A DNA stretch of 64,000 bases from Kofleriaceae bacterium (GCA_046597055.1 JBKJLC010000283.1:1-64000), one strand, 5' to 3'. Counted from the stretch's first letter, positions 3,930 through 41,408 are shown. A program made the numbers and translations. The notes: generated from the letters alone by a model not told the origin.

Positions 3930-6641
<2,712 letters not shown>

Positions 6642-6840
6642 GGCCCGGGCGGCGTCCGGCTGGCGCCGCCGACGCACACATGTCGCCGCCGTCGGCCCGT
6701 GTCGCACCGGTGGGTTGCGCAGGTTGCGCAGACGGCGGCAACGGCAGCTGCCGTGTCTGGCTGGCGGTCAGGGGCGGTGGCTGCATCGTCCCAGAAGTCC
6801 ACGGTCAGCGGCGGGCACGCGAGTTGCTCTCGGGTTCGCC

Positions 6841-7608: not shown

Positions 7609-7609
7609 G

Positions 7610-7622
7610 ACAGGGGACAGGT
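7610..7622 (+). repeat. left copy of 13-bp direct repeat (candidate att core)
   Basis: ACAGGGGACAGGT, identical to 26429-26441. Starts one intervening base after the stop of 6841..7608. Confidence 0.7.
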
Positions 7623-7670
7623 CTGAGGCCATCCAATAGTTCACAATAGTTACGGATCCCGCGGGGCCTT

Positions 7671-7705
7671 TGCTGCCACGGGGCTGCCACGGGGCTGCCA
7701 CGCGG
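7671..7705 (+). repeat. three 11-bp-period repeats, candidate integrase arm-type sites
   Basis: TGCTGCCACGG GGCTGCCACGG GGCTGCCACGCGG. The same motif occurs at 26316-26339. Confidence 0.65.
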
Positions 7706-7931
7706 CGCCAAACACGCTAGTGGGCTCGCTCGTCGGCGGGCTCGATGCCGGGCTCGATGGCGGGCTCGTCGGTGTACTCGCGAGGAGGCGACCACCTCGA
7801 ACCGGTCTGCCTCGGCCTCAATGATGTGCGGCGCCCGCTGCCCCCGATTCTCGGCCATGGCCGGTCCTCAAGATCGACGGCGCCCTGGTGGTTCGATCAC
7901 CTCCGGGCGCGCTCCATGGAGCGCCACCGTT

Positions 7932-8030
7932 GAGCGCTCGAGCGAGCGCGTCACGGAGCGGCCCGAGCGCTCGATCGAGCGCGTCAGCGAGCGGCCCGAG
8001 CGCCCGATGGAGCGCGTCAACGAGCGGACT
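7932..8030 (+). repeat. three tandem 33-bp repeats (11-codon units), possibly a gene remnant
   Basis: Units at 7932-7964, 7965-7997 and 7998-8030. The + frame reads ERSSERVTERP / ERSIERVSERP / ERPMERVNERT with almost all codons ending in G/C (track ORF 7821..8126). Confidence 0.7.
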
Positions 8031-8417
8031 CGGAGGCGTTCGTTGACGCGCTCCAAGCAGCTGATCCCGGAGAAGTTTGCGCTGCAACGAGTGTTCCCGC
8101 GGGCGTTTCGGCGAGTGGTCCGGTGAGCGCCACCGGTTGGAGCCGGCCGGCGGTCGCCGCAACCGGGCGCGCGCTCCTGGTTGTGGTGGCGGCTCAATCG
8201 TGCGTTCGCCCGGGGGCCGCGCGCTTGCCTGGCAGCGGGGACGCTGGCGGATCCCGGGATGATGCCGAGAGCTGCCTCCGCAGCCGCGAGCAAGTCAGGC
8301 GACACACGGCGACACACGCTTCGGATCCGCCGCTTCGCATTCTGGCTTCTACGGAGGTCGAGGGGAGCCGCGCCGCGCCGCGCCGCGCCGTCGAGCGGCG
8401 CGCCCGCGTCCGGGCGA

Positions 8418-10172
8418 TCACTCGTCTGGCCCCCTGTCGATGGGCGTAATTGGCAGGGCTTCATCGAAGCGAAGCCCGCTCCAGCCTTCGCCGGTGCCGA
8501 CGCTGCGAGCACGCCCCAGCCACACGTGGGTGGTGCCGTTAACGCCGCGGCTGCGCCGGGCGAGCCGCGTCACCCGGGTGCCTTCGCGCGGGATCTGCTC
8601 CTCGCGGACCCGGTACGGCGTGCCCGCCGCGACCGCGCGCGGCGAGAGGATCTTGCCGCGCGGGGTGACCACCGAGAGCGCCGCGGTGGCCGATAGCAGC
8701 GACGCCCGCTCGAGGGCGACCTGGGGGCTGGCGCCCAGCTTGACCGGCTGGAACGGGAACCAGTGGGGCGGCACCGACGACTGCAGTTGGTAGCGGAGCG
8801 TGGCGGTGCCAACCGCGGCGACCTCAGCGGCCGCCGGTGGGGCGGCCTGATCTGCGCGACGCTCGCCGCGGCCGAGCGGGCCCTCGACGGTGTGCTCGAC
8901 CGCCCACGCCAGGTTGGCGGTCTCGTCGCGCAGGAACCGGACTTGCTCGAGCACGCTGCCATCGAGCACGCTGGCGGCGGCGGTGCTCGGGACCAGGAAG
9001 CTGTCGGCCAGGCCGCCGTCGGCGCGCGCGGTCGAGAACATGGTGAACCGCCCGACCGCGCCGGCGTGCGCGGCCTCGGCGTCAGCGCGCGGGACCTTGG
9101 TCGACTGACCAAAGACGTCGACCACCGTGAGCGCGCTCCGGCACAACGTGCCCACCGGCTGCTCGAACGGCACCAGGTACCAGTCGTTGCCGTGCACCAG
9201 CAGGAAGTCCATCAGGATCATCGAAGCCAGGCTGCGACGATCGGGCCGGAGCGCGCCGATGTCGAACCGGCCGTCCTCGAAGTCCCAGAACCGCTCGTTG
9301 GGCATGCCGCGGAAGCGCACCGGCCCCGGGATCACCGCGCGCTCGATCGCCGACTGCCGCGCACCGAGCGAGCCGGCCGACGCGCCGCTCTGCGCCCGGT
9401 CGAAGGCGTACCACTCGAGATCCCCGCGCGCGTCGGGCGTCGCGTCGAGCGCTGCCCGGCCGCCGGCCGGATCGGTCGCGTAGACCCGCAACTGGTAACC
9501 GAGATCGGCCGGCGCCCAGCCCTCGGGATCGCCGTCGCACGGTGGATCCATGGTGGTGGCGACCCAGCGGACCAGCCGGCGCACCGCCTGGCGTGCGAGC
9601 TGGCGCCGCTCGTTCGGCACCGCCCACGGCACGCCCCGCGGCGGCAGGTCACCCGGCGGCGCCGCGTCGAGCGGCACGGGTGGCTGCCAGGTCTGGCTCG
9701 CCTTCCACAGGGCGACGCCATCGATCGCGCGACCTCGCCACAGCGCCCGCAGCCGCGCGGCGCGCGGATCGGCGTCGACCGCGTCGGTGATCGGATACGC
9801 GGCGAGGAAGTGGCCCCGCACGTCGAGCGCGCCGAGGTCGGCCAGGAACCGATCGAAGGTCTGGCCGAGCTCGACCGCGAGCGCGAGGTCGTCGGGCGAC
9901 ATCGCCTCGGACACGGCGTAGCGCTCGAGCGGTGTGTCGCCCGCGACCCGGTGCGCCGGCGCGCCGGGCTGGCCCCACCCGCGCACGTGGCCGAGCTGGG
10001 CCGCGATCCGCACGTACGCGGGCGACCCGGCGTCCTCGCCCTCGAATTCGCCGAGCTGCCACTGGCGGGTGAGCAGCCAGGCGGGATCATGGAGGCGGGC
10101 GGCGAGGGCATCGGCGAGGTCGGTCGCGCGCGGGCGCGGCTCGAGGCGGTTCCAATAGGTGATCGAGGGCAT
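8418..10172 (-). CDS. conserved-looking hypothetical protein, 584 aa (island operon gene E)
   Basis: MPSITYWNRLEPRPR...DPAWLLTRQWQLGEFEGEDAGSP; FRGMPNERFWDFEDG; FLLVHGNDWYLVP; FLRDETANLAWAVE; SGLRFD. Starts 2 nt after the stop of the upstream gene. Confidence 0.85.
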   Translation of the reverse strand: MPSITYWNRLEPRPRATDLADALAARLHDPAWLLTRQWQLGEFEGEDAGSPAYVRIAAQLGHVRGWGQPGAPAHRVAGDTPLERYAVSEAMSPDDLALAVELGQTFDRFLADLGALDVRGHFLAAYPITDAVDADPRAARLRALWRGRAIDGVALWKASQTWQPPVPLDAAPPGDLPPRGVPWAVPNERRQLARQAVRRLVRWVATTMDPPCDGDPEGWAPADLGYQLRVYATDPAGGRAALDATPDARGDLEWYAFDRAQSGASAGSLGARQSAIERAVIPGPVRFRGMPNERFWDFEDGRFDIGALRPDRRSLASMILMDFLLVHGNDWYLVPFEQPVGTLCRSALTVVDVFGQSTKVPRADAEAAHAGAVGRFTMFSTARADGGLADSFLVPSTAAASVLDGSVLEQVRFLRDETANLAWAVEHTVEGPLGRGERRADQAAPPAAAEVAAVGTATLRYQLQSSVPPHWFPFQPVKLGASPQVALERASLLSATAALSVVTPRGKILSPRAVAAGTPYRVREEQIPREGTRVTRLARRSRGVNGTTHVWLGRARSVGTGEGWSGLRFDEALPITPIDRGPDE

Positions 10173-10174
10173 GT

Positions 10175-13100
10175 TCACTCCGACGCGAGGACCGAGATCT
10201 CGTTGATCGTCTGGCCCGCCAGATCGAGGGTGATGGTGTCGTTGGCGAGGTTGGCCGCCAGGTAGGTCGTGGGCGCGAACATGCCGAGCACGCCGAGGTG
10301 CTCGGCGTCCACCGCGCGGATCTTCGCGAGGTCGAGCGTCTCGTGCAGGATGTCGACCAGGCTCGGCAGGTTCCAGCCGCCGCCGAGCACCGGCGGCACC
10401 GCGAGCAGCACGCACTGCGGCGCCTCGGCGCCCGGTGCGTCGTGGTGGACCGCGAAGCTGGTGTCCTGGATGGCTGACGGGATCAGCTCGGCCCACTCGT
10501 CGAGGAGCAGCCCCGCCCAGCCGCCGCCGGGCGTGAACGTGAGGTGACGGGTGACCGCCAGCGACAGAGCCCCGGCCGGCGGCGGTGCCTTGCCGTCCTT
10601 GGGATGGAAGCGACCGCCAAACCAGCGCGTCCCCGGTGCGTGGGGGAGCTGGCCGATCTGCAGCTCGAAGCGCCCGCCGCCGATCGCCTCGGACGCCATC
10701 GTCGCGAGCCGCAGCGCGGCGAGCGGCGGTCTCACCCGCGCGGCGCCCTCGAACCAGCGGCGCGGCGCGTACGGGTCGCCGACCAGCGTCGGCCCGTGGG
10801 CGATCGCCGCGTCGATGGCGGCGCGGTTTCCGGGCAGAAACGGCGACAGGATCGGCACGGTGTCACCGAACATCGCGCGCAGCGCCTCACGCGGCGCGGT
10901 CGCCACGTCGGCCGCGTTCAGCCGACGCTGCAGCTCCGCGTGGGCGGCCTCGGCCTGCGCCAGCAGGGCCGGTCGGGTGGCGGGATCGGCATCGTCGGTG
11001 CTCGCCGGGGTCGCCGCGCGCAGGCCGAAGCCCACCGCAGCCCACAGCTGGCTGCGCAAGACGTCGAGCGACACGGGGGCAGCCGGTGCCGACGCCTCGG
11101 TTCGCGCCTGGACCAGGAGCCCGCGGGTCACGACCAGGCGCTCGCGGGCGTCCAGCAGGCGCGCGGCCAGCGCCTCCTGCGGCGTCTCGGGCGGCGGTTC
11201 GTCGCCCGGTATGACCAGGTCGCTGGCAACCAGCGGACGCGCCGCGTCTACCGACTCGCCGATCAGCCGCGCGACCTCTAGCAGCTCGAGGAAGGTCACG
11301 TCCCGCGGCGCCGCCGGATCGCGGCGGTGATCGATCTCGAGGCCGCGTCGGCCGCGATCGCGCGTGGCGACCACCTGCGCGAGGCGCGCCGCCAGCTCGC
11401 CACGGCCGTCGAGATCGGTGGCGCGCGCCATCGCGACCACGTCGAACGGCGACAGCGCGAGCTCCGCCAGCGTGACGGTCACGCTGCGGCGCGCCCCGCC
11501 GCCGGCCGGGTCGGGAAACGACACCCGCGCGCGGACCCGCTGCGGATCGCCGAGTACCTCGCCAAGCCACGCGCCCAGCCGGGGCTCGGCCACCCGACGC
11601 GGCGTGAGGCTCGGCCACGTGGGCGGGAAGGTGCCGCTGCCGAGCAGGATCGCGACCCGGTGGGTACCGGCGATGCCGCCGCGTGGCATGGCGGCAACCT
11701 GAGGATCGGGGACGTCGCCTTCGCCAGCCAGCGATGCGAGCGTCGCGCTGGCGCGCTCGGTGTTGCCGCGCACGGTCTGGTAGATCGACTCGGCCAGCAG
11801 CAGGTCAGCCGCGCTGTCGAGATCAGCGTCGAGCGCGAGCAGGCACACCGCCAGCCGGTCGCGATGGACCGTCGCGACCGGCGGTAGCGCGGCCCACGGG
11901 ATGGTGGCCGCGGTGGTGCTGCCCGCCAGCGCGGTCCGGAGCGCGACACCGTCGACGACGTTGCGCGCGGCGATGCGGTCCGTCGGCTCGTCCAGCACCG
12001 CCGGATCCCGACCCAGCGGGAAGTGCGCGCGGAACGGGGCGATGAACATGTCGAGGCCAGTATCGTGGACCGCGCGCTCGAACCGGTACCCGAGCACCGC
12101 CCCGAGCGGGAGCCCCTGGCGGACCCCGTCGAGCAGCTCGCGCGCGCGGCGGACGCGCTGCGACGACAGGTCGACCGCGACCTCCGCGCGCGCGGCGCCG
12201 GTGCGGGTGAGGTGCGCGTTGCGCAGCACCGCGGCCGCGGCGGCGTGGGCCGCCGACGGGGCGTGGATGAAGCCGCCCGCGGTGCCGCCGCGCGGGGTCG
12301 TGCGGCGGCGCAGGTTCTCGACCCAACCGTACGCGCCGACGTGGATGCCGGCCGGAGCGGTCTTGCGCATCGCGGCGAGCCGGCGCGTCGCCATCGACGT
12401 GATCCACGCATCGAGCCGGTGCGAGCTCACGTCGAGGGTCTCGCGTAGGAGGCGCTCGAGCTCGGCGGGCGGCACCTTCTCGAGCACCTGCAGGTTGGCG
12501 CGATACGTGCGCACCTTGGCGCGATCCCCGTCGGTCGAGGGCGCGAGCAGCCACTCGCCGAGTGACTTGGTGCCGGTGAGCCCGGCGAGCGGCCGGCTCA
12601 GCCGCTCCCAGGTCGTGAGCCGCGCCTCGGTCCCCGGGGCGATCTTGTGGAGCTCGTGCTCCAGGCGCTCGATGGGCTGGGCCACCCCGGTGCGGATCGC
12701 GAGCTCCAGCCCGAGCCGGGCGTAGACGATCAGCGATGCCTGGCGCAGCAGGTGATACAGGACCGGGTTGCCGAACGCCGGGTGCCCGGCGAGGCCGGCG
12801 TCGCGCAGGCTGGCGGTCGACGCGGTGCGCAGCTCGCGGATGTAGTTGGGCGTGAGCTCGCCCTCCTCGGTGAGCGGCGCGCCGGTCACCAGCGGGCGGC
12901 CGATGCGCGCGGCCTTGTCGCTGAACGTCATCCGGGTGACGCGCGGGTGGCTGCCGGTCAGCCCGGCCTCGGCCAGCGCGGCCGACGCCAACGTCGCGCG
13001 CGCGGTGGCCTCGACCGCCGGGTCGAGCCCGATGAGCCGCCACAGGTTCTGGACGTAGCCGGGACCGACCACCTCGCGCGAGCGGAGCTCCCGGCTCAAG

Positions 13101-14428
13101 GCATCGCGGCTCAGGACGCCGAGCAGATCGTGGTCGGCGTCGCCGGTCTGGCCGACCCGCGGCACCGCGCTGGCCCGCGCCAGAAACCGCGCGCGCCAGA
13201 CGTTGAGCAGGCGGACCAGCCCGGTGTCGATCGCGGTGGCCGCGCCTTGCCAGCGGCCGAGCGAGGTCGCCGGCAGGATACCGTAGGGCACGTGCCCGAC
13301 GCGCATCGCGGGCAGCGGGCCGCGGCCGCGCACGTACTCGAGGACGTGGCCCTGGACCGCGTCGATCTGGGCGGTATCGAGCAGCGGCGTCATCATCTGC
13401 TCGAGGAAATAGCCGAGCGTGCACGGCCAGAGCGCATGGAGCATCGCCGCCGCCGCCGCCTGCTCGGTGCGGCGGGCGCCGTCGATCCGGGCCAATGGGG
13501 GCGCGGCCGTGGCCGGCAGCCCGAGCGCGCGCGTCAGGGCGTCGGCATCGGTACCCACGACCAGGCCAGCGTGGCCGCTGGCCCGCTCGATCGCGAAGCT
13601 CTGCACGGCATCGCCGGGCGGCGGGTAGCCCGACGGCGCGAGCGCCGAGTTATTGGTCGGCGTGCCCTGGCGGACCAGCGCCAGGCCGCGCGTGTAGTGG
13701 TGGGCGTCGAACAGGGCCGCCAGCTCGGCCGCGGCATCCCCCGGGGGCACACCGGTGCGGACGCCGAGCACCAGCAGGCGATCGAAGCCGGCGTCGAGAT
13801 CGATCGGTCGCAGCGGGATGGTCAGCGCCATGCCGGCGGCGGCCGCCGCGTCGAAGTCGACCGTCCACAGGAGCTCGCGGTCGATCGTCAGCTCGTCGCG
13901 GTGCGCCAGCGACGAGGCATCGGCGGCCAGATCGGGACGGAACGACAGGCGCAGCGGCGTGACGATATCGGCGCCGGTGACCCGCGCGACCTCGACGCCG
14001 CCGCGGTAGCCGATCGCCATCCACGCCCGCGGCAGGAGCCGCGCGACCACCTCGGCCAGCACGTCGTCGCGCAGCTCGGGCGCGACGAAGGTCGGTGCGG
14101 CCGGTCGCGGCTGCACCGCCACGTTGGTGGGCGCCCCGCGGGCGACCAGCCAGGCCGCCCGCGGCGGTGCGAACTGGGCGACCAGCCCGCGCCAGGCGTC
14201 GAGCTCGGCGGTGGGATTCCACGCGGTCTGCCAGTATGTCTGGGCGGCGCGCCACTCGTCGCTAGACAGCGGTCGGCGGTGGGCGTCGGCCACCAGCTCG
14301 TCGGGATAGACCCGGACCAGCAAGCGCGGGTTGGTGCCGGTCGCGAACCGCGTCTCGACGCGGACCGGGAACAGCGCGATCGGATAGCTGGTGCTGAGGA
14401 GCGGGAGCTCCGCGGCGAGGTCGGCCAT
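10175..14428 (-). CDS. large hypothetical protein, 1417 aa (island operon gene D)
   Basis: Long ORF with typical GC3. Motifs LFPVRVETRF, LVRVYPDE, HHYTRGL...QGTPTNN, SHRLDAWITS, GAYGWVENL, GGFIHAPS, LGYRFER and DEWAELIP...HHDAPGAEAPQCVLLAVPP. Confidence 0.88.
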   Translation of the reverse strand: MADLAAELPLLSTSYPIALFPVRVETRFATGTNPRLLVRVYPDELVADAHRRPLSSDEWRAAQTYWQTAWNPTAELDAWRGLVAQFAPPRAAWLVARGAPTNVAVQPRPAAPTFVAPELRDDVLAEVVARLLPRAWMAIGYRGGVEVARVTGADIVTPLRLSFRPDLAADASSLAHRDELTIDRELLWTVDFDAAAAAGMALTIPLRPIDLDAGFDRLLVLGVRTGVPPGDAAAELAALFDAHHYTRGLALVRQGTPTNNSALAPSGYPPPGDAVQSFAIERASGHAGLVVGTDADALTRALGLPATAAPPLARIDGARRTEQAAAAAMLHALWPCTLGYFLEQMMTPLLDTAQIDAVQGHVLEYVRGRGPLPAMRVGHVPYGILPATSLGRWQGAATAIDTGLVRLLNVWRARFLARASAVPRVGQTGDADHDLLGVLSRDALSRELRSREVVGPGYVQNLWRLIGLDPAVEATARATLASAALAEAGLTGSHPRVTRMTFSDKAARIGRPLVTGAPLTEEGELTPNYIRELRTASTASLRDAGLAGHPAFGNPVLYHLLRQASLIVYARLGLELAIRTGVAQPIERLEHELHKIAPGTEARLTTWERLSRPLAGLTGTKSLGEWLLAPSTDGDRAKVRTYRANLQVLEKVPPAELERLLRETLDVSSHRLDAWITSMATRRLAAMRKTAPAGIHVGAYGWVENLRRRTTPRGGTAGGFIHAPSAAHAAAAAVLRNAHLTRTGAARAEVAVDLSSQRVRRARELLDGVRQGLPLGAVLGYRFERAVHDTGLDMFIAPFRAHFPLGRDPAVLDEPTDRIAARNVVDGVALRTALAGSTTAATIPWAALPPVATVHRDRLAVCLLALDADLDSAADLLLAESIYQTVRGNTERASATLASLAGEGDVPDPQVAAMPRGGIAGTHRVAILLGSGTFPPTWPSLTPRRVAEPRLGAWLGEVLGDPQRVRARVSFPDPAGGGARRSVTVTLAELALSPFDVVAMARATDLDGRGELAARLAQVVATRDRGRRGLEIDHRRDPAAPRDVTFLELLEVARLIGESVDAARPLVASDLVIPGDEPPPETPQEALAARLLDARERLVVTRGLLVQARTEASAPAAPVSLDVLRSQLWAAVGFGLRAATPASTDDADPATRPALLAQAEAAHAELQRRLNAADVATAPREALRAMFGDTVPILSPFLPGNRAAIDAAIAHGPTLVGDPYAPRRWFEGAARVRPPLAALRLATMASEAIGGGRFELQIGQLPHAPGTRWFGGRFHPKDGKAPPPAGALSLAVTRHLTFTPGGGWAGLLLDEWAELIPSAIQDTSFAVHHDAPGAEAPQCVLLAVPPVLGGGWNLPSLVDILHETLDLAKIRAVDAEHLGVLGMFAPTTYLAANLANDTITLDLAGQTINEISVLASE

Positions 14429-14447
14429 GATGTTTCTCGAGAACGGC

Positions 14448-17267
14448 TCAGGGCAGGAGCTGCGCGCCGTGAAGCGCGACGCGCACCGGCCGCTGGCAGG
14501 TGATGACGGCGTGGTCGGCGCCGCGCGCGTACGGCTTGTCGGCGCTGGCCGCGGTCAGGTGCCAGCCGGGCCCGCCGGCGGTCTCGAGGCTCGCGGTCGC
14601 GGGCCACGGGGATGCGAGATCGATGTACTGCACGGTGTCGACCAGGTCGGGGCTCGCCACCAGGTGGGTCCAGGCCAGGTCGTAGAGGCTGGTCGGCGCG
14701 CTCGCGCCGGTCGCGTCGAGCCCGAACCGCGGCTCGCCGGGCTGCTCCTGGAAGACGAAGAACCAGCCGGGACTGGTGGTGGTGGCGGTGCCGCGCGCCT
14801 CGTCGCTGGTGAGCGCGAAGCCGAAGAACGCCACGTCAGGGCGCAGGCGCCCGGCGAACACCGGCTCACGGCGCTCGGTCGCCAGCGCATAGCCGGTGGT
14901 GGTCCTGCTGGCCCGCTGGGCGTACACGAGCGTGTTCGGATAGCGGTGCAGCAGCTCGCCGCGCACGACCACGACCAGGTGGGTGCCGCCGGACACCGCC
15001 GGCCGCGGGCTGTGGGTCCCGAGCGCGGAGTCCCTGGGCCACAGGTGGATCGGGTGGATGTCCTTCAACGTCTCGGGGGTCGGCGCCGGCGCCAGGCCGG
15101 CGGGATCCCAGAACTGCCGGAAGTAGCTGCCACGCTGATCCGACGGGTACTCGTTCCACAGCAGCTCGCGCGACATCTCGTGGTTGAGCCCGACCAGGTA
15201 CGCCTCGATGAACGCCGGGTTGGTCTCGGCGACCGTGACGCTATCGCGCGGGAGATCGGCGAGCCCGGGCAGCATCCACGCGGGCGACAGCTCGGCCAGC
15301 GGCTTGTACATCGGCTGCGGGAACACCGGGTGGGCCATCACCGGCTCGAGCGGGTCGGGCGGGCTCCAGCTGAACCCCGCCCCCTGGACCGCGCGTGCCG
15401 CGAACGCCGCCGCGAACGCGACCCGCGGCTGGGTAGCTTGCTCGACGGCGGTCTTCAGCGCGAGCGCGTCGACCCGCTGCAGGGTGCCGCCGGCGCCCGG
15501 CGTCACGGTGCGCCCGGCGAGCGTGGCCGCCGCCGTGCGGAACGCCAGCATCGACGGACTGTCCACGCCCGGGACGACATTGAAGCGCGTGATCACGGCC
15601 TCGGGGGGATCGATTGGGTCCCATACGACGGCATCGGAACGCACGGGTGCGGCCACGATCGTGCTTGCGGTCGGAAACGCCGTCCGCACCGCGTTCACCA
15701 CCCACTTGCGCGTGGGGATGGCGCTGCCGACCGGCGGCGGCGTCAAGGCGAGCACGGCGTCCAGCTCGCCGGTGTTGACCCGCGTGAACGCGGGCCGCAG
15801 GACGACATCCGGCCGCGCCTGACGACGACCGAGCGGGCCGAGCGGCCGGGCCAGCCGCCGCAGCGCGCCCGAGAGCAGGGCGAACCGCGGCGGGCTGCCG
15901 TTGACGCGGTCGCGCGCCGTGCGGCTGGCGACGCGCACCCGCGCCAGGACCGGCGCGGTCAGCACCAGCGCGTCCTCGGGGCCCGCGGTCTGGATGTGCC
16001 GACGATGCAGCCGCTCGCCGAGCGCGCGCGCCAGCTGGGCCATGCGGAGGCGCGCGTTGGCCTCGCGGATCCCGTCGACCTGCGCCCACGCCGATGCCAT
16101 GAGCTCGTGTTGCTTCTGCTGCACCACCTCGGTGCCCAGCGAGGCGGCGATGCGCGTGCGCGGATCCAGGTTGAGCCCGCGGAACCAGGGCGGGGTCGCG
16201 GTGGTATCGAGGCGGGCGCGACGTGCGTGCCAGGCGCCGTACAGCGGCGGTGCGACCACCGGCGTGACGCCTCCCTTCTCGAGCGCGTCGAACGGTCGGT
16301 TGAGCAGGCCGGTGAGCGCGGTCTGGAAGCTCGCCACCGGCGCGGCGGTCGCGGCCGCCTGGGGCGCCCGCAGCGCGCCGCCGAGCGCCATCGGCTCGGC
16401 CGAGGCCGCCGGCAGGCCGCCGCCGGGCCGGCTGGCGTCGAGCGCGCGGGTCGAGGCCGCGGTCGGGAACGGCGCCGGCGTGAGCGCCTGGGCCAGCGCC
16501 TCGAAGTCACCGCCGGCACCGGTCGTGAAGCGCCAGCGGTAGTAGACCGGCAGCTCGAGCGCGGCCCCGAGCGTCGTGGTGGTCCACGCCGGCGCCAGCG
16601 CGGCGGCGGTTTCGCCGAGCGGCAGGCGCAGGCCGGCGCGCCGACCGACCTCGAAGGTCGGCACCACCACCGCCCAGTAGGTGGCCCGTGCGGTGAGCCG
16701 TCGCGGGCACATGAGCCGGGCCAGGCACCGCTCCGGCTGCTGGGTCACGACCTTTTCGAGCGACAGATCGTCGTCGCCGCTCACCTGCACGTGACACCAT
16801 GCCCAGGTCTGCGCGGGCGGCGGCATCGGCGTACCCGGCTTGATCGTCACCGATTCCAGCGGACGCTCGGCGCGCGCTGGCAGGAACGGGCCCAGCTCGG
16901 CCTCGGTGAAGACCAGCAGGCACAGCCAGGGCGAGACGCGGCCCTCGGGGTCGTCCGCGCGCGGCGTGTAGCGCCACGGCAGGTCGACCTGGTCGAGCTC
17001 GACCATGGGAAAGTAGTTCGTCTCGGCGACGAGCGCGTTCGCCGGCGGCCACGTGCGGGCGATCGCGCGCGGATCGAACTGCACGACGTCACCCGGGCCC
17101 ACCAGCTCGAGCGTGGTCGACGCGCTCTGCGCCTGGTTGCTGTTGAACGTCACCGCCACCGGCAGCGTCGCGCGTGACCCTGCGGTCGCGAAGTCGCGCC
17201 GCAGCTGGGCGGCCACCCCGCGCCGTAGCCACGGGTAGAACCGGTACGCCGCGCCCGCCTGGCTCAC
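14448..17267 (-). CDS. large hypothetical protein, 939 aa (island operon gene C)
   Basis: GTG start overlaps the upstream TGA. Motifs FYPWLRRG, GPGDVV, DLPWRYTP, PWLCLLV, VPTFEVGR, WRFTTGAGGDFEAL, PPLYGAWH and FIEAYLVGLNHEMSRELLWNEYPSDQRGSYFRQFWD. Confidence 0.88.
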   Translation of the reverse strand: MSQAGAAYRFYPWLRRGVAAQLRRDFATAGSRATLPVAVTFNSNQAQSASTTLELVGPGDVVQFDPRAIARTWPPANALVAETNYFPMVELDQVDLPWRYTPRADDPEGRVSPWLCLLVFTEAELGPFLPARAERPLESVTIKPGTPMPPPAQTWAWCHVQVSGDDDLSLEKVVTQQPERCLARLMCPRRLTARATYWAVVVPTFEVGRRAGLRLPLGETAAALAPAWTTTTLGAALELPVYYRWRFTTGAGGDFEALAQALTPAPFPTAASTRALDASRPGGGLPAASAEPMALGGALRAPQAAATAAPVASFQTALTGLLNRPFDALEKGGVTPVVAPPLYGAWHARRARLDTTATPPWFRGLNLDPRTRIAASLGTEVVQQKQHELMASAWAQVDGIREANARLRMAQLARALGERLHRRHIQTAGPEDALVLTAPVLARVRVASRTARDRVNGSPPRFALLSGALRRLARPLGPLGRRQARPDVVLRPAFTRVNTGELDAVLALTPPPVGSAIPTRKWVVNAVRTAFPTASTIVAAPVRSDAVVWDPIDPPEAVITRFNVVPGVDSPSMLAFRTAAATLAGRTVTPGAGGTLQRVDALALKTAVEQATQPRVAFAAAFAARAVQGAGFSWSPPDPLEPVMAHPVFPQPMYKPLAELSPAWMLPGLADLPRDSVTVAETNPAFIEAYLVGLNHEMSRELLWNEYPSDQRGSYFRQFWDPAGLAPAPTPETLKDIHPIHLWPRDSALGTHSPRPAVSGGTHLVVVVRGELLHRYPNTLVYAQRASRTTTGYALATERREPVFAGRLRPDVAFFGFALTSDEARGTATTTSPGWFFVFQEQPGEPRFGLDATGASAPTSLYDLAWTHLVASPDLVDTVQYIDLASPWPATASLETAGGPGWHLTAASADKPYARGADHAVITCQRPVRVALHGAQLLP

Positions 17268-20200
17268 GCGACCGCCTCGACGCTCGACACGACCTGGAGC
17301 GTGCCGGCGTCGGCTGGCGTGTAGGTGAGGTGCGTGCGGAGGCCGAGCTCGGCCAGGCTGCGCGTGGTTGCCGGGCACAGATCCAGGCGCGCGCGCAGAT
17401 CGACCGTGGATGCGATCACGAACGTCTCCTCGGTCAGGGTGAACCGCGGCATGAACGCGGGCGGCGGCGCGTACGCGGCGACGCCGGTGCTGCGCAACGA
17501 TGCCAGCGCGGCCGACGACAGCGCGGTGCCCATTACCTGCTCGGCACGGCTGGGCCGGAACGGGGGCGCCGCGGTCTGCGCCCGACCGTCGGCCCACACC
17601 TTCGTCTCGTACTCGAGCGTCGCGATCAGCGGCGCGCCGGCGCGCATCGCATCACTCGTCACCGTCACGCCCGAGATCATCTGCTCGAACCCCGGCCGTG
17701 ACAGCCGGTCGGCCTCGCTCAGGTCCTCGAACTGCGCTGGTGCGAACCAGTCGCGTACCGGTTTCATCAGCACGTTCCGGCCCGCCACCTTCACGTCGGT
17801 GACGCGGAAGTCGTTGGGCCCCTCGGGCCGCACCTGACCGAAGCGCGTGATCGGCCGGTCGAGCGGCACCACCGTCTGCCGTAGCGTGATCGTCGCGCCC
17901 GGGTCCACCCGCGGCGTCGCGGTCGCGTCGACCGGCGGCGCGGTCGTGACCGCGACGATGCCCGGCGCCAGCGCCGTGCTCCAGTTCGCCGCGCGCCCGA
18001 CCTCGGGGCCAAGGACGTCCCAGATCCGCCGTCTCGGCAGCTCGACCGCCTCGTCGCGGCCGAAGCGGACATGGACCGGCACGCGCAGGTCGACGAACCA
18101 AAGCGACAGCGAGGCTTCGCCATCGAGCTTCCACGGCCCAGGCCCGGTCAAGCGGCCTTCGAAGTGCACGCCGGCGAGCACGGTCGTGCCGCGCCGCAGC
18201 TTCACCCCCGCCCACAGGTCGACCTGGAGCCTCAATGGGGAGAACGTCAGCAGCGTCTCGAAGCCCAGGTCGCCCTTGATGTTGAGCGGCCCAGCCGCGG
18301 CGTACAGCTGGATCTGCGCGCCGATCTGCGCCGTGTTGGACGTCAGCGCCAGGAAGCCCTGCAGGTCGAGCCGTGGGTTGTCTCCCGAACCGATCGCGAT
18401 CTGGATCCGTCGGAGGTCGGGAAAGCCTGGCGGCCGGCGGAACTGCGAATGGAAACCGCCGATCGCCAGCGCGAAGCTCGGCGAGGCGCCCCAGCTCGTG
18501 CGCAGCGCGAGGTCGCCGACGATCGGGAACCCGGCGATCTTCGAGTCGCGCAGCGACGCGTCGATGGCGACCCGCTTCTGGCCGAGATCGAGCTCGCCGA
18601 CCACGTCGACCTTCAGGTCGATGACCCGCCGGTCCTGGGTCGGCAGCGCCACCGCCGCGGTGCCGATCAGCACCATGCGCACCGGCGCCGGCAGCTCGAC
18701 CAAGAGTGCCAGCTCGGCGGTGACCAGCGTCGGCGTGCCCCAGCCGAGCTTCACCGCCGGCCCGACGACGTGCCGCCCCGCCGCGGCCGGGAAGTAGCGC
18801 GCCAGATCCCCGGTCAACCGAGCCGCCTGCGCCACCGGATCGGCCGGGAAGAAGATGTCGCCGACGCCGGGCCCGCGCAGCGCCGCGCGCAGCGCGTCGA
18901 CGTCGACCCGCCGGTGGATCCCGATCAGCCCGCCCACGCCCTGCAGCGTGAACCCGAGCCCGATCTGGACCGGGCTGAACTGCGCCGACACGACCGCGGC
19001 CAGCGAGAACCCGCGGCGGTCGCCGGGCAGGTGCGTGGTCAGGACGCCGAACGCGCTCATCGCAACGCCCGCGACCGCGAGCTCGAGCGCACCGGCGTAC
19101 TCGCCCCGGGCGTCGTCGAGCCGCAAGAACCCGCCGCCCTCGACCGGCCCGCCGTCGACGCGCAGGCCCACCGCCGACGGTGGTTGGAATCCGATCGAGA
19201 CTGCGAGCTCGCGCAGGCGGCGATCGCCACGCGGCGTCAGCGCGCACGCGACGCCGACGTCGGCGACGGTCGCGACGATCGGCCCGAGCGTGACCGCGCC
19301 GCTCGCGGTCGCGGCGAGCCGCACGCCGCCGTCGTCGGTCGCGACCGCGCTGATCCGCAGGGCGTCCAGGGCGACGATCCCCACGCGTCGGCCCGACGCC
19401 AGATCGAGCGTCACGCCGCCGGTCGGCACCGCCAGCCCGGTCTTGCTCGACCAGCGCAGCGCGACCGGTGCGCCGAAGCGTCGGGGCTCACGACCGAGCA
19501 ACCCGGTCGGGTCGTCATCGGGCGGGAGCAGGGTGGCGGCCAGCCGGTCAGCGCCGACGCGCACCACGACCTCGGGGTCCGCGGCGGAACCCTCGAGCGC
19601 AACGCTCACGGCCGCGCCTGCGACCTCGAGGCGCGACGTGCGCGGGGTGCCGATGACGAGCCACGGTTCGGCGCCCGGACGGGTCAGCTCCAGGCGGGCG
19701 CCGACCGCCGCACTGCCGCCCACGAAGCGGGCCTCGCCCGGGAACAGGCTCGCGCCGATCGCGTCTCCGGCGCTGGCTGTCACGCTCCACCGCAGGCGCC
19801 AGGCGTCGCCGAGCGGCAGCGTGGCCCCGGCCGCACCGTCGAGAATGGCCTTGATCACCAAGCCCGACACCCGCGCCTCGCCCGCGCGCGTGGCCGGCAG
19901 GAGGTCACCGCCGACCCGGTACAGCGTGTGGTCGAGCCCGGCGATTGCGGGCACCAGGACGACTCGGAGCGCCGATGCGGCGGCCTCGATGCGATGCCCG
20001 GGCGCGAGCTCGAGGGCGGGCGCGAGGTCGAGCGCTGGCGGGAACAACGTCGCCGGCACCCGCAGCGCACGGAGCACCGAGACCAGCGCCTCGAACGCGC
20101 GCGCGTGCGCGAACGGCTGCACGGGATCCCCCCAGTCGTAGGCCGCCCGCAGCGCGGCCATGGGATCGCGGACCGCCGCGAGCAGTTGATCCCAGTCGAG

Positions 20201-20722
20201 CGCGACGCGTGTGTACCGCGTGCGAAACGGACCGGTGGGCTCGGAGGGCTCGTGCCGGATCACGCCCCACAGGCGCAGGAACGCGTGCAGGCCCGGCCGG
20301 TAGGCACGGACGTACTCGTCGACCAGGTCCTCGAGCACGTGCTCGCCAACACTGGCCCAGAAGTCGGCGCGACCGAATGGTTCGGCCAGGCCTGCAAGCG
20401 ATGCCGGCGTGAAGGTCGCCACCGCTCGTAGCAGCGCGGCGGCGGTGGTCGCGAGCTGCTCGATCGAGGCGGGGTCGAGCGACGCGTCCGGATCCTGCGC
20501 GAGGCGATCCTCGATCCCGGCGGCGATCGTGACAAGCTCGGTGAGCGGCGCCCGAAACGGCGCGACGCGACCGACCGTTTCGAACGTGGCAGCGTCGAGC
20601 GGGGCGAGCCAGCCGTAGCGGCGGACCAGCAACTCGAGCGCGTCGGCGCGCTCGAACCGGCGCCGCAGCGGCTCGACGAAATCGCGCAGCGTCATGAACA
20701 AGAAGGTCAGCTGGTCCCTCAT
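17264..20722 (-). CDS. DUF6603-like domain protein, 1152 aa (island operon gene B)
   Basis: ATG 20722. Helical N-terminus, then a Gly-rich beta-strand region (GGGFL...YAGALEL...VQIGLGFTLQGVGGLIGIHR...GPAVKLGWG...AIGGFHSQF...LALTSNTAQIGA) that I recognise as DUF6603-like from memory. Confidence 0.8.
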   Translation of the reverse strand: MRDQLTFLFMTLRDFVEPLRRRFERADALELLVRRYGWLAPLDAATFETVGRVAPFRAPLTELVTIAAGIEDRLAQDPDASLDPASIEQLATTAAALLRAVATFTPASLAGLAEPFGRADFWASVGEHVLEDLVDEYVRAYRPGLHAFLRLWGVIRHEPSEPTGPFRTRYTRVALDWDQLLAAVRDPMAALRAAYDWGDPVQPFAHARAFEALVSVLRALRVPATLFPPALDLAPALELAPGHRIEAAASALRVVLVPAIAGLDHTLYRVGGDLLPATRAGEARVSGLVIKAILDGAAGATLPLGDAWRLRWSVTASAGDAIGASLFPGEARFVGGSAAVGARLELTRPGAEPWLVIGTPRTSRLEVAGAAVSVALEGSAADPEVVVRVGADRLAATLLPPDDDPTGLLGREPRRFGAPVALRWSSKTGLAVPTGGVTLDLASGRRVGIVALDALRISAVATDDGGVRLAATASGAVTLGPIVATVADVGVACALTPRGDRRLRELAVSIGFQPPSAVGLRVDGGPVEGGGFLRLDDARGEYAGALELAVAGVAMSAFGVLTTHLPGDRRGFSLAAVVSAQFSPVQIGLGFTLQGVGGLIGIHRRVDVDALRAALRGPGVGDIFFPADPVAQAARLTGDLARYFPAAAGRHVVGPAVKLGWGTPTLVTAELALLVELPAPVRMVLIGTAAVALPTQDRRVIDLKVDVVGELDLGQKRVAIDASLRDSKIAGFPIVGDLALRTSWGASPSFALAIGGFHSQFRRPPGFPDLRRIQIAIGSGDNPRLDLQGFLALTSNTAQIGAQIQLYAAAGPLNIKGDLGFETLLTFSPLRLQVDLWAGVKLRRGTTVLAGVHFEGRLTGPGPWKLDGEASLSLWFVDLRVPVHVRFGRDEAVELPRRRIWDVLGPEVGRAANWSTALAPGIVAVTTAPPVDATATPRVDPGATITLRQTVVPLDRPITRFGQVRPEGPNDFRVTDVKVAGRNVLMKPVRDWFAPAQFEDLSEADRLSRPGFEQMISGVTVTSDAMRAGAPLIATLEYETKVWADGRAQTAAPPFRPSRAEQVMGTALSSAALASLRSTGVAAYAPPPAFMPRFTLTEETFVIASTVDLRARLDLCPATTRSLAELGLRTHLTYTPADAGTLQVVSSVEAVA

Positions 20723-20724
20723 CG

Positions 20725-23507
20725 TCACACGCCCCGCACCTTGTCGAGCAGGCTCCGCGTGAGCGCCCGGACCACCTGGGCGCGCATCGCAGCGAGATCG
20801 AGAAACCGCGCGTCGACCAGCACCTTGACCTTGCACGCATCGAGCTGCAGCTCCCGGAGGACTTCGGTCACCGCCGCCGCCGCCTGATCGACGAGCGCGG
20901 GGCCGACCGTGGCCATGAGCGCGACCCCCTCATCGAAGCCCTTCTTCATCCGGTCCGGCGCAAACACGAACGGCGAGTACCGTCCGTACTCCTCGCGCTG
21001 CTCCTGGAAGTAGCGCTCGATGTGCGGGCTGGCCGAGCCGGCCCATCCGAGGTCGATCTCGAGCCGCTCGGGGAATGGCGTGGCGAAGGTCAGGTCCTGG
21101 GCTCGTCGCAGCCACTGCCGGATGGCGGTAACCTTTCCGACCGCCTCCCAGATTTGGTTCGCAACCTCCTCTTCGGCCAGCTGCTTCATCCAGATCGTGA
21201 GCGGGATTGTGAGCGCCGGCGCCGCGCGCAATAAGATGGTCGCGACGGTCGGGACCCCGAGTGCCGACGGCACGCCAAGATACGGGATCTTGCTGACGAT
21301 CTTGACCGCGATCCCGTCGGTCATGAACGTCAGGTTCTTCAGGTCGGGCAGCATCTTCCCGAGCTTGAACATGCCGTAGAGCCACTTGGCGTGATCCGCG
21401 AACGTCTTGCCATCGGCGGTCACGTGGAGCCCGAGCAGCCGCTCGATCTCGGCCGAGTCGGTGGCCGTGGCCTGCAGCTCCTTCCACCGGGCGATTGCCG
21501 CGGCGAAGTCGGCGCACGACGGCTCGGCGTCGTCGGGCGCTTCGAGCATCGTCTTGTCGGTCGAGTAGTATGGTTCGAGCCCGGCTGTCTGTTGGGCACG
21601 CAGCTCGTCGAGGTCGGTGTAGGGAGACGACGGATCGAGCTCGGGACCGGCGACGCGCACCGAGAGGTCCTCGGTGCGGCCGAGCTTCGCCCACAGGTCC
21701 TCTTCGGCGAACCGGTCGATCGTGAAGGTCCCGAGCGCGGGGTGCGACGCCTTGACCTCCTGCCAGACGTCATTGAACGCGAAGTCATAGGCGAGCGCGC
21801 GCTTGTCGTCGCGCTCGATCGGGTCGAGCTCGGCGTACGGATGGCGCACCAGCGGCTCGGTCAGCATGGCCTCGCGATAGAGCGACTGCCACCACGCGAA
21901 GTACGAGTGCTTGCGACGGAGCGCCTGCTGAGCGTGGTGGATGTAGATGCTGTGGGCGGCGCGGTAGGGCGAGCGCAGGTGATCGATGATGTCGATCAGC
22001 TCGTCGGTCGTCAGCCGGTCGAGCGTCGCCGCCAGCTCGGGTCCGGGCGAGTCGGGATCCTGACCGACCACCGCCGCCAGCTCGTGCTCGCGCTGTATCC
22101 GGGGCTCTGGATCGAGATCGAGATAGACCGACAGCCGGTGGGCGATCGTGCCGTCGCGCGTCGCCGGATGCTCGAGCCGGATCCGGAAGCGCTCACGACC
22201 CCCGAGGACCCAGGTAACGCGCGCGGTCGCGCCGGTGCCGCTGGTCGACAGCACACGCAGGCTCGCGTCGAGCGACAGCGGGCGGCCTTGGGCGGCGAAC
22301 ACGGCTCGGAGGTCGATGTCCGGGCCATCGAGGCGAAGCAGATCGAGGGCGGCGCGCACAGCGTCGAAGCGCTCGCGGTCGCGGGCCGGGGCCGCCGGGT
22401 GCTCGGCATGGCCGGCAAGCTCGAACAGCTTGCCGTGCCACAGCTCGTTCTCCGACTCGAAGAAGAACAGCTGGATCGGGAAGAACTCGCGCGCGCTGTG
22501 GGCATCGACCAGCGTCGCCGAAGAGACCAGGGTGGCTTGCCCACCCGCGACCGTCTGGGCGACGTCGTACTGGACGACGTGCCGCTCCCCGGCGTGGACC
22601 ATCGCGTCGCGAATCAGCCAGGCGCTATCTCGCGAGCGCACGCGGATCGCCGCCGGGCCGCTCAGATAGTGATTGTGAGCCGCGAGCCGGGCGCGCAGCG
22701 CGTCGGTGACCCGTCGCGCGTTGAGCGCGCCGATGAGGCTTTGGTACGCGGGATCGGGGTTGTCGAGCCGCATCGTCGCCAGCGCGACCTCGGCGGTGAA
22801 CTTCGCGGGATCGAGCAGGGCCTGCACGACCGCGTCCTTGCGCTCAGGGGTGTGGACATCGTCGGGCAGCAAGCGCTGGCGCACGAGGTGGCGGTGGACT
22901 CCCAGCCGGGTCTCCACGCGCGTGCCGGGCGCGATCGCGTGCGCACCAAAGAACTTGGAACTCGCGCGGGGCGTACACATTGGCGCGGCCACCGAAGAAC
23001 GAGTACAGCGCGTACATGCTGTCGGCAGACTGTCCGAACTGGCACGCACGAAGCGTCACCCACGAGTCGTCGCGCAGGCGCGCGACCACGGCCTGACGCT
23101 TCTGCATGAAGTCGGCGAGCTTGCCGTCGGCGAAATCCTTCTGGAGGCATGCCAGCGCGAACGCGTTCACGTACTGATACTCTGGCGTTTGGAAGGCCGA
23201 CGCGCCCGGCACCACCGGTACCAGGAGCGACTCCGGCGAGCCGTGGACCACGATCACGATCTCGCGAATGCGCCTGACCCCGGCCCGCACGTCGGCGTGC
23301 AGGACATCGATCAGCCCGGCGAGGCTGGCGACCTCGCGGCGAACGTGGCCGCGGTAAAACCTATCCAAGAAGGCACGTGCGGCCTTTGCCGTACCCATCT
23401 TCCGGAGGGAGGAAGTCGACGACGTAATCACGCACGCCCGGGGTCGCCGGCAGCGGATATTCGACGAGCTGCCCGAACAGCCGCTTCCCGCGCGCGAGAT
23501 CGCTCAT
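20725..23507 (-). pseudogene. island operon gene A: ~926-aa protein broken by two single-base insertions; N-terminal DUF4347/caspase-like domain
   Basis: ATG 23507 (MSDLARGKRLFGQLVEYP...GYGK) joins track ORF 22844..23431 if one A at 23385-23387 is removed, and joins ORF 20725..23049 if one A at 22955-22956 is removed. Could be a sequencing error rather than a true pseudogene. Confidence 0.7.
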
Positions 23508-23612
23508 CGGGTCGCCTGGACTGGATCCCTGGAGCGGGCCATCGCTGCGCGACGAATCACAGGCTGAGTAGGCCTGCTGCGAGCCCCGATATCCACGGAA
23601 GCGCAGGGTAAG

Positions 23613-24860
23613 TCACGGCACCGCGATCGGAGCAAGCGCCGCCCGGGCCGCGTTGCGCACGGTCGGCGGCGCGCGACGGACCGTCCGCTCGAGCGCCGCC
23701 ACGGCGCGACGGCGGACCCGGCGATCCATCGCTCCGGGGCGGCGCAACAGCATCCCGAGGCCTTGCGCGCCGAGCTCATGATCGGGCCCTCGCTCGAGCA
23801 GCGCGACGAACGCGTCGACCACCTGCGGCGACCGCGGGCCAGCGGTCGCGATCAGGTCGACGAGCCCGAAGCGGACCTGCGCCGGCGCCGAGGGCAGCGC
23901 CGCCAGCAGCCGGCCCAGCGCGGCGTCGAGCGACGGTGTCCAGCCGATCGCGGCCAGTGCCCGGGTAGCGCGGACGGCGCTCCAGTCGGTCGGGCTCAGC
24001 ACCGGCCGATGCACCGCATCGACGAGTGCCGGCACCGCCGCCCGCGCCGCGGCTCCTAGCAGCGGCAACGAGTCGATCGCCTGCTCGCGCGATCGCGGGG
24101 AGCGTGTGAACTCGATCACCGCGATCGCGAACTTCACGCGGTCATGATCGGTGGCGTCCGGGCCCGGGTAATGCGCGCGCTCCCAACGCAGCGATTCGGC
24201 GACCTCGGGCGCCATCCCGTCGGGCGCGACGCCGGCGTCGGCGAGATACGTGAACATCGCGGCGCTCGGGCCGTTGGCGTAGGTCATCACCGTGTCGCCA
24301 CGGGCGGTACGCTGGGTCGGATTGATGCCGTGGTCGACCAGCAGGCGCGCGATGTCCACCGAATCGACCAGCGCGGCGAGTATCAAGAGCGGCACGCCGT
24401 CGGGCGGCGCCAGATCGGGATCGGCGCCGGCAACGAGCAGCCGCCGCACCGCCTCGGTATGCCGGGCGGCAACCGCGAACCAGAGCGCTGTCTTGCCGAT
24501 TTCGGCCGAGCCGATCCCGTGTTCGGCAGGTAGCTGGAAGTCGACGGCGGCACCGGCCTGCACGAGGAGGTCGATCACCTCGACTTCACCGTGCTCAGCT
24601 GCAGTCATGAGCGGGGTGCGACGGCCGTTGAACGCGTGACCGTTGCAACGCTGGCGGTCGAGCTGGGCGCGTACCTCCGCAGGCGATATGAGCCAAGCGA
24701 GCTCGGGCGAGCAGTCGGGCGCCGGACGCGGGGGAACGGGCGGCACCGCCCGCTGGGGCTGGGGCGCCGCGATGGGTCGGGCGGCCACGCTAGACGGTCG
24801 TGACGAGCCGCACGCTCCGGCGACAAGCGCTCCGGCGGCGAGTAGCGCGCCCTGCACCAT
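23613..24860 (-). CDS. ankyrin-repeat lipoprotein with C-terminal HEAT-like repeats
   Basis: SD GGAGGT before ATG 24860; lipobox AGAC. Ankyrin motifs RTPLMTAAEHGEVEVIDLLVQAGA, GKTALWFAV...LLVAGADPD and LLVDHGINP. HEAT-like ARAAVPALVDAV. Confidence 0.8.
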   Translation of the reverse strand: MVQGALLAAGALVAGACGSSRPSSVAARPIAAPQPQRAVPPVPPRPAPDCSPELAWLISPAEVRAQLDRQRCNGHAFNGRRTPLMTAAEHGEVEVIDLLVQAGAAVDFQLPAEHGIGSAEIGKTALWFAVAARHTEAVRRLLVAGADPDLAPPDGVPLLILAALVDSVDIARLLVDHGINPTQRTARGDTVMTYANGPSAAMFTYLADAGVAPDGMAPEVAESLRWERAHYPGPDATDHDRVKFAIAVIEFTRSPRSREQAIDSLPLLGAAARAAVPALVDAVHRPVLSPTDWSAVRATRALAAIGWTPSLDAALGRLLAALPSAPAQVRFGLVDLIATAGPRSPQVVDAFVALLERGPDHELGAQGLGMLLRRPGAMDRRVRRRAVAALERTVRRAPPTVRNAARAALAPIAVP

Positions 24861-24912
24861 CCACCTCCCAAGGAGCCCGCGCGGCACGACAGGGGTCTAT
24901 AACAAGGGCGCG

Positions 24913-25821: not shown

Positions 25822-25960
25822 CGGCGTCGAGCCTCCGTCGACGTAGCCGGGTGCGGGGCGCCAAACCTGACGGGCGGGCCTTGGCCTCGACCCTTCGATG
25901 ACGTCGCTACGAAGGGCAAGCTGATGGAGCCGCAGCTTGAGGCGCTGGAGGTCGTGGTCA

Positions 25961-26010
25961 GCCTCGCACGAACCGGCACGAACCGGCACGACCCAGCACG
26001 ACCCGGCACG
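25961..26010 (+). repeat. five 10-bp tandem units ending in GCACG
   Basis: GCCTCGCACG AACCGGCACG AACCGGCACG ACCCAGCACG ACCCGGCACG. Confidence 0.75.
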
Positions 26011-26315: not shown

Positions 26316-26339
26316 TGCTGCCAAGGTGCTGCCACGCGG
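26316..26339 (+). repeat. two 11-bp-period repeats, candidate integrase arm-type sites
   Basis: TGCTGCCAAGG TGCTGCCACGCGG. The final 12 bp are identical to 7694-7705. Confidence 0.65.
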
Positions 26340-41384: not shown

Positions 41385-41408
41385 CGCGTGCGGCGGGGCT
41401 CGGCCCGG

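Follow-up and report, generated by a model that had tools for sequence, protein, structure and literature searches.

The window analyzed here is a 64,000-nucleotide (nt) stretch of a Kofleriaceae bacterium (GCA_046597055.1 JBKJLC010000283.1:1-64000), corresponding to contig C188 of an 8.4-Mb assembly in 303 contigs. Its G+C content is ~74%, and its genes have their best relatives in Kofleriaceae and other Myxococcota. The minus strand carries a cassette of five co-directional genes, labeled A to E from 5' to 3' (Table 1), in which four large genes (B, C, D and E) are conserved across phyla and the first one (A, the head gene) varies between loci. The spacings are 2 nt between A and B, a 4-nt overlap between B and C, 19 nt between C and D and 2 nt between D and E, and the genes are translationally coupled. 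The start codons of B, C, D and E match the N-termini of aligned homologs, and B-E together amount to ~4,100 residues of conserved protein per copy. An earlier interpretation made from the nucleotides alone (the sequence-only reading) had described a five-gene operon at this site. Its coordinates and spacings prove exact, B-E are intact and all the protein motifs it quoted are found in the translations, but the position of gene A holds no intact open reading frame (ORF) of ~926 amino acids (aa) starting at 23507. A scan for promoters and terminators gives no signal above chance.

Protein B is a full-length member of the DUF6603 family (PF20248), aligning to positions 4-501 of the 502 in the Pfam profile with a score of 383.7 bits against a cut-off of 27 (E 1.6e-114). 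DUF6603 is a family without a described function, its RefSeq relatives are named 'DUF6603 domain-containing protein' and have 'hypothetical protein' neighbours, and neither 'DUF6603' nor 'PF20248' occurs in any paper of the part of the literature that was searched. C, D, E and the window's A belong to no family: Pfam, NCBIfam, PADLOC and PHROGs return nothing on A-E apart from DUF6603. The PDB, queried with each of the five proteins A to E both as a single sequence and as a profile, gives no meaningful match; D has none by sequence, and the N-terminus of B is matched only by designed coiled coils. In agreement with the sequence-only reading, Pfam, NCBIfam and PADLOC detect no NTPase or nuclease in A-E, and a crude Kyte-Doolittle scan of B-E finds no signal peptide and no N-terminal or strong hydrophobic segment. 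The Pfam and NCBIfam scans of the cassette proteins likewise contain no nucleic-acid-binding family and no biosynthetic family.

Table 1. Features of the window discussed in the text, with positions counted from its first nucleotide
Feature	Position	Strand	Basis and remarks
Inserted block, ~19.9 kb	6642..26587	.	Between polA (3930-6641) and a zincin/TPR gene (26588-27847)
Left direct repeat	7672..7705	+	Three tandem 11-mers, GCTGCCACGGG/GCTGCCACGCG
Gene E	8418..10172	-	ORF, 584 aa
Gene D	10175..14428	-	ORF, 1417 aa; largest of the proposed chassis proteins
Gene C	14448..17267	-	ORF, 939 aa; GTG start; 4-nt overlap with B
Gene B	17264..20722	-	ORF, 1152 aa; DUF6603 protein
DUF6603 domain of B, residues 446-1004	17711..19387	-	Pfam PF20248; universal part, travels with C, D and E
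N-terminal domain of B, residues 1-445	19388..20722	-	Specific to the head class; exchanged with gene A; proposed adaptor for the A protein
Gene A, broken	20725..23507	-	Ortholog of a family of 920-964 aa
Gene A, frame segments	23507 to ~23388; ~23384 to 22955; 22953 to 20725	-	Alignment to P0122
Gene A, second frame change	22953..22956	-	One extra base at ~22954; junction of P0122 alignments
Gene A, first frame change	23385..23387	-	One extra base in a run of A
Ankyrin-repeat protein gene	23613..24887	-	Pfam Ank; lipoprotein-type N-terminus; directly upstream of A, co-directional
Right direct repeat	26317..26339	+	21 of 23 nt identical to the left copy

The distribution of the cassette was examined by scanning one genome per species with an alignment of C, and the best 80 of at least 657 stretches gave 76 distinct loci. 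Searches of these loci with the window proteins (tblastn) place B-C-D-E on the same strand and in the same order in 65 of the 76. A second look at one further locus (L069) finds B directly upstream of C and raises this count to 66, and in each of the other 10 a contig boundary falls where the missing gene would lie; there is no exception to the order. The loci represent 10 phyla (Myxococcota, Actinomycetota, Bacillota, Chloroflexota, Acidobacteriota, Verrucomicrobiota, Gemmatimonadota, Planctomycetota, Pseudomonadota and Bacteroidota), and strains of Neobacillus, Verrucomicrobium sp. and Streptomyces are among the carriers. The sequence-only reading had set a gene-neighbourhood test beforehand, which the cassette passes: B, C, D and E keep their order and orientation in different phyla, and the gene at position A varies. 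Its statement that similar sets of motifs stand beside DUF6603 genes in unrelated bacteria is verified. Apart from DUF6603, searches of Pfam, NCBIfam, PADLOC, PHROGs, the PDB and, for E, BFVD give no match, and the cassette maps onto no characterized system in them. Because the order is conserved and no library maps the set onto a characterized system, the description as a conserved chassis with a variable head gene is supported. Under a working definition adopted here rather than taken from a published family, a DUF6603 gene is directly followed on the same strand by C, D and E homologs in this order, and a variable co-directional gene lies upstream of a B with a matching N-terminal domain; the window shows both arrangements, although its A is broken.

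On a broader scale, 1.84 billion proteins searched with a profile of E yield 5,674 representatives at 50% identity, of which 4,603 have E<=1e-10. Relatives of C occur on 13 plasmid records, four of them haloarchaeal, and a plasmid of Salinigranum marinum (NZ_CP100462.1, 334581-354217; L123) carries a PhoD-like A, a DUF6603 B and C, D and E, its D reaching 2322 aa with a halo surface domain and its E 904 aa with two lamin-tail domains (LTD). No relative of C is found among the 2.9 million viral contigs of IMG/VR, a result that is uninformative either way. The genome of the window holds a second full cassette on contig C101 (L003:12960-19999 and L004:1-6382), in which B-E are 44-57% identical to the window copies and an ORF of 383 aa lies upstream with a 4-nt overlap with B; its N-domain is weakly like that of the window A family (E 1e-5). 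The same-genus genome G150 has three matches of the C-gene query. Since DUF6603 scores above the cut-off in 13 of the 401 genomes of the window's phylum and there are multiple copies in this genome and in G150, the cassette is considered accessory and mobile, with several copies per genome and horizontal transfer. The system is real, very widespread and uncharacterized.

The gene preceding B varies between loci and almost always shares its direction. In 62 loci an ORF of 150 aa or more stands immediately upstream of B in the same orientation, in most cases separated from it by -8 to +50 nt. Pfam assigns these 62 heads to Peptidase_S8 (15), an M64-like family (13, by weak partial matches), a PhoD-like family (4, also weak and partial), PLD, M14, galactose-oxidase/Kelch and DUF2515 (2 each), and tyrosinase, trypsin and NAL1_N (1 each, the last a weak partial match), while 19 have no family. 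Peptidases account for 32 of the 43 heads with a Pfam family, and 7 of the 19 heads without one resemble S1/NAL1-like heads by BLAST. A C-terminal module of 120-150 aa is shared by some S8 heads and S1-like heads that are otherwise unrelated (16 of 68 proteins, 12 of which are seeds). By a crude test, none of the 68 head proteins has a hydrophobic N-terminus. The sequence-only reading had proposed that B-E build a large complex, a candidate apparatus for toxin delivery, membrane attack or defense, with gene A as its variable effector or activator; this interpretation is supported in part, as regards the conserved chassis and the variable head gene. The gene A copy in the window is not functional as written, having two frame changes.

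Exchange of the head gene extends into B. Pairwise identities were computed in 46 loci for the N-terminal domain of B (residues 1-445 of the window protein), for the DUF6603 part of B and for C; the locus pairs are not independent and the figures are descriptive. Among pairs with C identity of at least 0.5, those with different head classes (n=184) have a mean identity of 0.25 in the B N-domain (maximum 0.40) and 0.67 in DUF6603, and those with the same head class (n=111) have means of 0.50 and 0.74. An M64-like-head locus (L022) and four S8-head loci (L025, L031, L033 and L052) are 78-80% identical in C, 83-85% in DUF6603 and 24-27% in the N-domain. In sliding windows over the same comparison, identity is 13-35% before and 83-97% after a breakpoint at about residue 450-510, where the Pfam domain starts, and this breakpoint is unaffected by the non-independence of the pairs. 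The 18 best matches of the window's own B N-domain (31-44% identity, E 1e-64 to 5e-109) all lie in loci with the same A family and span ~430-440 residues, with one at 396, and the two loci with the closest DUF6603 domains (L015 and L003, 57-58% identical) match the N-domain only at E 4e-5 and 5e-11. From these comparisons the exchanged unit is the head gene together with the first ~450 codons of B, with its boundary at the start of DUF6603. Similarity of the B N-domain does not separate S8 heads with the C-terminal module from those without it, and a complex prediction for A (774 aa) with residues 1-220 of B scores 0.01.

B also occurs in other arrangements. In 25 of the 76 loci (L014-L053), nearly all of them actinobacterial, B is ~1470-1575 aa long with a C-terminal extension, and B and C are separated by an extra gene for a Kelch beta-propeller. 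Another, divergent DUF6603 architecture is found in four genomes of the window's phylum (L124-L127 in G241, G129, G106 and G292) as single ORFs of 2997-3782 aa. Their only Pfam domain is DUF6603, near residue 2100-3000, and tblastn finds none of C, D and E next to them. Single in-frame stops interrupt otherwise full-length genes in three loci (TAG in D of L010, TGA in B of L062 and TGA in E of L073) and may reflect decay or sequencing errors.

The longest open frame at the position of gene A runs from 20725 to 23049 and encodes 774 aa, and the distance from 23507 to 20725 (2783 nt) is not divisible by 3. Aligned with an intact 940-aa homolog (P0122), gene A uses three successive frames: residues 1-42 of the homolog are matched in the first, from the ATG at 23507, residues 38-185 in the second at 61% identity, and residues 186-937 in the third at 53% identity. 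The G+C content of third codon positions (GC3) changes frame at the same places as these alignments. Removal of the two extra bases restores 926 codons and a stop, which is the length given in the sequence-only reading. A division into two separate genes was rejected, as the three frames align to a single intact homolog. At the first site the contigs of sequencing runs X1 and X3 are identical to the window; X1 may be the run from which this DNA derives, X3 is a separate sample from that study, and no RNA run is listed among the sequencing runs. Since the X3 contig carries the identical sequence, an error of assembly was rejected as the only cause. Contigs of X4 and X5 (another study, depth 2.4) are without one letter at 23385, and the frame is open there. 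Because the X3 contig matches the window and X4 and X5 keep the frame, the first frame change is probably a genuine mutation in this population. The second, situated 6 nt short of where the X3 contig piece ends and outside the coverage of X4 and X5, is less certain. Since two 1-nt frame changes break gene A, this copy has lost its head enzyme or is losing it.

The protein search yields 22 further members of the family to which gene A belongs; their lengths range from 533 to 1034 aa, with 20 of the 22 between 920 and 964 aa. Within the first 190 residues His89 and Cys156 are invariant in 21 sequences, and both are kept in the middle piece of the window's gene A. The N-domain of the family has no match in Pfam or the PDB. 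The conserved His and Cys were compared with a clan CD-like cysteine peptidase, for which there is no supporting family match in Pfam or the PDB, and Atlas features point to DUF4347 (0.92 and 0.90) and Peptidase_C80 (0.88) as leads only. The A pieces of the window have no homolog in the 76 loci. A search with an alignment of the family finds 35 metagenome loci; B directly follows the A-family gene in 22 of the 24 with more than 100 nt downstream, and in the other two the match is confined to the N-terminal domain of A. In a search of 400 other genomes of the phylum, the query used finds no member of the A family beyond E ~1e-4. The A region has a G+C content of 0.69-0.71, compared with 0.74-0.75 for B-E. 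At one locus (L118:3-329) the A-family gene is preceded by part of a C homolog, which suggests two cassettes in tandem.

The remaining chassis proteins contain strongly conserved segments. In C, beta-rich N- and C-terminal domains flank a core of long helices, and the motif GLNHE..R..W is invariant. The N-terminus of D is rich in invariant positions (PVRxETRF...VRxYPDE, in an alignment of 40 sequences). The first 47 residues of E form the most conserved motif of its family (alignment of 45 sequences), nearly identical even in the archaeal copy, and they are predicted to be disordered in the model of E alone, as expected for an arm that would fold on a partner. The AlphaFold2 (AF2) model of E has a mean predicted local distance difference test (pLDDT) of 78.9 and a predicted template modeling score (pTM) of 0.75, with a C-terminal part rich in beta-sandwich structure. 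A helical subdomain of E (residues 98-212) is homologous to residues 775-878 of D (hhalign probability 92%, E 6.4e-7), and hhalign of D with C gives no match. The models of C and E, both confident, have no significant fold match in the PDB when searched whole, and that of E has none in BFVD; because single domains were not searched alone, the absence of a fold match does not show a new fold. D gives no usable match in the ESM Atlas.

The cassette lies in a block inserted next to polA. The distance from polA to the zincin/TPR gene is ~70 nt in G150 and ~0.3-1.5 kb in G245, G250 and G290, as against 19.9 kb here. None of these four genomes has a cassette between the two genes, and the copies of G150 lie elsewhere. 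The 23-nt repeat that flanks the cassette occurs at just these two sites in the 64 kb and in 0 of 100 shuffles. The insertion is established, and the repeat is a plausible att-like sequence. No integrase or recombinase is found, the flank ORFs scanned being without a Pfam family, and no tRNA or tmRNA gene is found in the 64-kb window. The att-bounded island proposed earlier is thus borne out by synteny and by the flanking repeat, but it lacks an integrase and a tRNA.

The ankyrin gene upstream of A is within the inserted block and has no homolog in any of the 76 loci, so it is not a conserved member of the cassette; the ankyrin models of PADLOC are matched by this neighbouring protein only. 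Three tandem copies of a 33-nt unit (7932-8030, 79-100% identical) occupy part of the region of low coding potential that separates the left repeat from the end of gene E. Elsewhere in the window, 42510-50285 encodes two adjacent paralogs of ~1260-1280 aa, both combining a Ser/Thr protein kinase domain with a downstream ATPase domain of the AAA_16 (STAND-type) family. The genes clustered at 50361-56716 encode a protein resembling CotH kinases, one that resembles ice-binding proteins and contains DUF4215 repeats, and one of 1073 aa that has a glucose/sorbosone dehydrogenase domain. The segments 30001-34000 and 38001-42000 have a G+C content of 77-80% and a strongly negative AT skew (~-0.2), unlike the remaining window.

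The reading proposed here is that B-E form a conserved chassis of four proteins and that the exchangeable enzyme it carries docks onto the N-domain of B and acts outside the cytoplasm. B, C, D and E would assemble into a stoichiometric chassis of ~440 kDa that needs no NTPase, and the class-specific B N-domain would serve as the adaptor that holds the A enzyme. The chassis would then carry or present this enzyme to a substrate outside the cytoplasm of the producer, either another cell or extracellular polymers, by an exit route that dispenses with a signal peptide, for example lysis or an export path yet to be recognized. Features in keeping with a complex are the translational coupling, the subdomain shared by D and E, the disordered and conserved segment of E, and the C-terminal module on unrelated heads of the S8 and S1 types. 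Action outside the cytoplasm is favored because the head enzyme families are typically secreted and because relatives of the chassis proteins carry surface-type decorations, namely LTD on the archaeal E, the halo surface domain in the archaeal D, VCBS on one relative of C and the Kelch gene in 25 of the 76 loci. The whole statement is given a probability of roughly 0.45, and its cassette and adaptor parts taken alone are far more secure. A wider proposition, that B-E are the chassis of an unrecognized class of prokaryotic protein machine in bacteria and archaea, which would bring enzymes held by a DUF6603 adaptor to a target outside the cytoplasm with no signal peptide, ATPase or phage-derived part, is put forward as doubtful.

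Several points weigh against this interpretation. The association of B-E is predicted from genes and models. The cassette shows no component for export, lysis or membrane insertion, and B-E lack both a signal peptide and any clear membrane-spanning segment, so that the data fit a purely cytoplasmic role equally well. The models cover C and E, and a known fold may hide in B or D. The M64, PhoD and NAL1 head assignments come from partial Pfam matches of which many are near or below the cut-off. The identity contrast between head classes overstates its statistical support, since head classes correlate with taxonomy and the locus pairs are non-independent. Finally, the machine may not act in this window because its head gene is broken.

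The main rival, an intracellular anti-phage or anti-plasmid system, is unlikely. In such a system B-E would be a cytoplasmic sensor or scaffold that releases or activates A as an abortive-infection effector upon infection. The patchy distribution (13 of 401 genomes), the several copies per genome, the relatives on plasmids and the inserted block all fit defense, as do proteins that are uniformly leaderless and a head gene that is decaying here. The swapping of effectors fits as well, given that exchange of protease, PLD or phosphoesterase heads is typical of defense systems. However, no PADLOC model matches A-E, and the NTPase, nuclease and nucleic-acid-binding families are missing from the cassette. 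Tyrosinase, galactose-oxidase-like, M14 and M64-like heads would also be odd as intracellular effectors, and the surface-type decorations of the relatives (LTD, halo surface domain, VCBS and Kelch) speak against a role confined to the cytoplasm.

A cytoplasmic role without defense is pictured in a cage or holding complex that would sequester a potentially harmful enzyme, in the manner of an encapsulin or a proteasome, with the upstream gene providing a cargo docked by its targeting module. Four different giant proteins, probably in equal amounts, are unlike a shell built from many copies of a small protomer, Pfam finds no encapsulin or HK97-type family, and the surface-type decorations and the accessory rather than housekeeping nature of the cassette are further difficulties; the explanation is accordingly quite improbable, even though a cargo-like gene does lie directly upstream, a C-terminal module is common to unrelated proteases, the proteins are leaderless and no energy source is present. 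The least probable of the explanations weighed holds that the genes are inherited together without forming a complex, the head, often a protease, processing B-E into released products, or the genes serving a pathway for an unknown polymer. It draws on the preponderance of peptidases among the heads (32 of the 43 with a Pfam family) and on the invariant His, Glu, Arg and Asp columns of C, which could form an active site. PhoD-like, PLD, tyrosinase and oxidase-like heads are nevertheless unfit for a role in maturation, the co-variation of the head with the N-domain of B points to direct recognition of B and not to a cleavage site spread over B-E, and no biosynthetic family is present.

Known systems offer likenesses to a chassis with an exchangeable head without supplying its parts. 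Tc (ABC) toxins are built from giant subunits that lack leaders and share an operon, and their enzymatic payload can be exchanged; the cassette may work alike. None of the Tc signature families (TcA, TcB, TcC; RHS, SpvB, TcdB_toxin_midN) is found in A-E by Pfam or NCBIfam at E<=0.01, the models of C and E give no significant PDB match to a Tc-type fold, and the payload of the cassette is a separate gene with an adaptor domain, whereas that of Tc toxins is a C-terminal hypervariable region. Extracellular contractile injection systems and tailocins are leaderless multi-gene particles with variable cargo genes at one end, an arrangement that the cassette resembles. In contrast to these particles, A-E contain no sheath, tube, baseplate or AAA+ family (Pfam, PHROGs), E has no BFVD match and C no IMG/VR relative. 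The logic may be shared with Tc toxins and contractile injection particles by analogy, with unrelated parts. Encapsulin systems also place an enzyme gene directly upstream of structural genes, and the C-terminal module on unrelated enzymes resembles their targeting peptide; however, the cassette encodes four giant, distinct proteins instead of one small HK97-fold protomer, and its module is 120-150 aa long and present in 16 of 68 heads, not a short peptide. For an HK97-fold shell, there is no Pfam family in the cassette and no fold match to the models of C and E. Modular anti-phage systems are similarly accessory, mobile, present in several copies per genome and given to exchange of effector genes, but the cassette has no PADLOC 2.0 match or nucleotide-binding sensor, and its head enzymes are unusual. 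Judged by these searches, none of the four kinds of system appears to share a detectable part with the cassette.

With thousands of diverged members in at least 10 bacterial phyla and in haloarchaea, the cassette is one of the few conserved systems of such size that are still unannotated. That the exchanged unit includes the first third of B is a new result of this analysis, and the adaptor boundary near residue 450 of B provides an exact, testable rule for the fit between head and chassis. If the chassis delivers or displays its heads, which include proteases, lipase- or nuclease-type PLD proteins, phosphoesterases and oxidases, it would amount to a new way of deploying enzymes or toxins and might serve as a programmable carrier.

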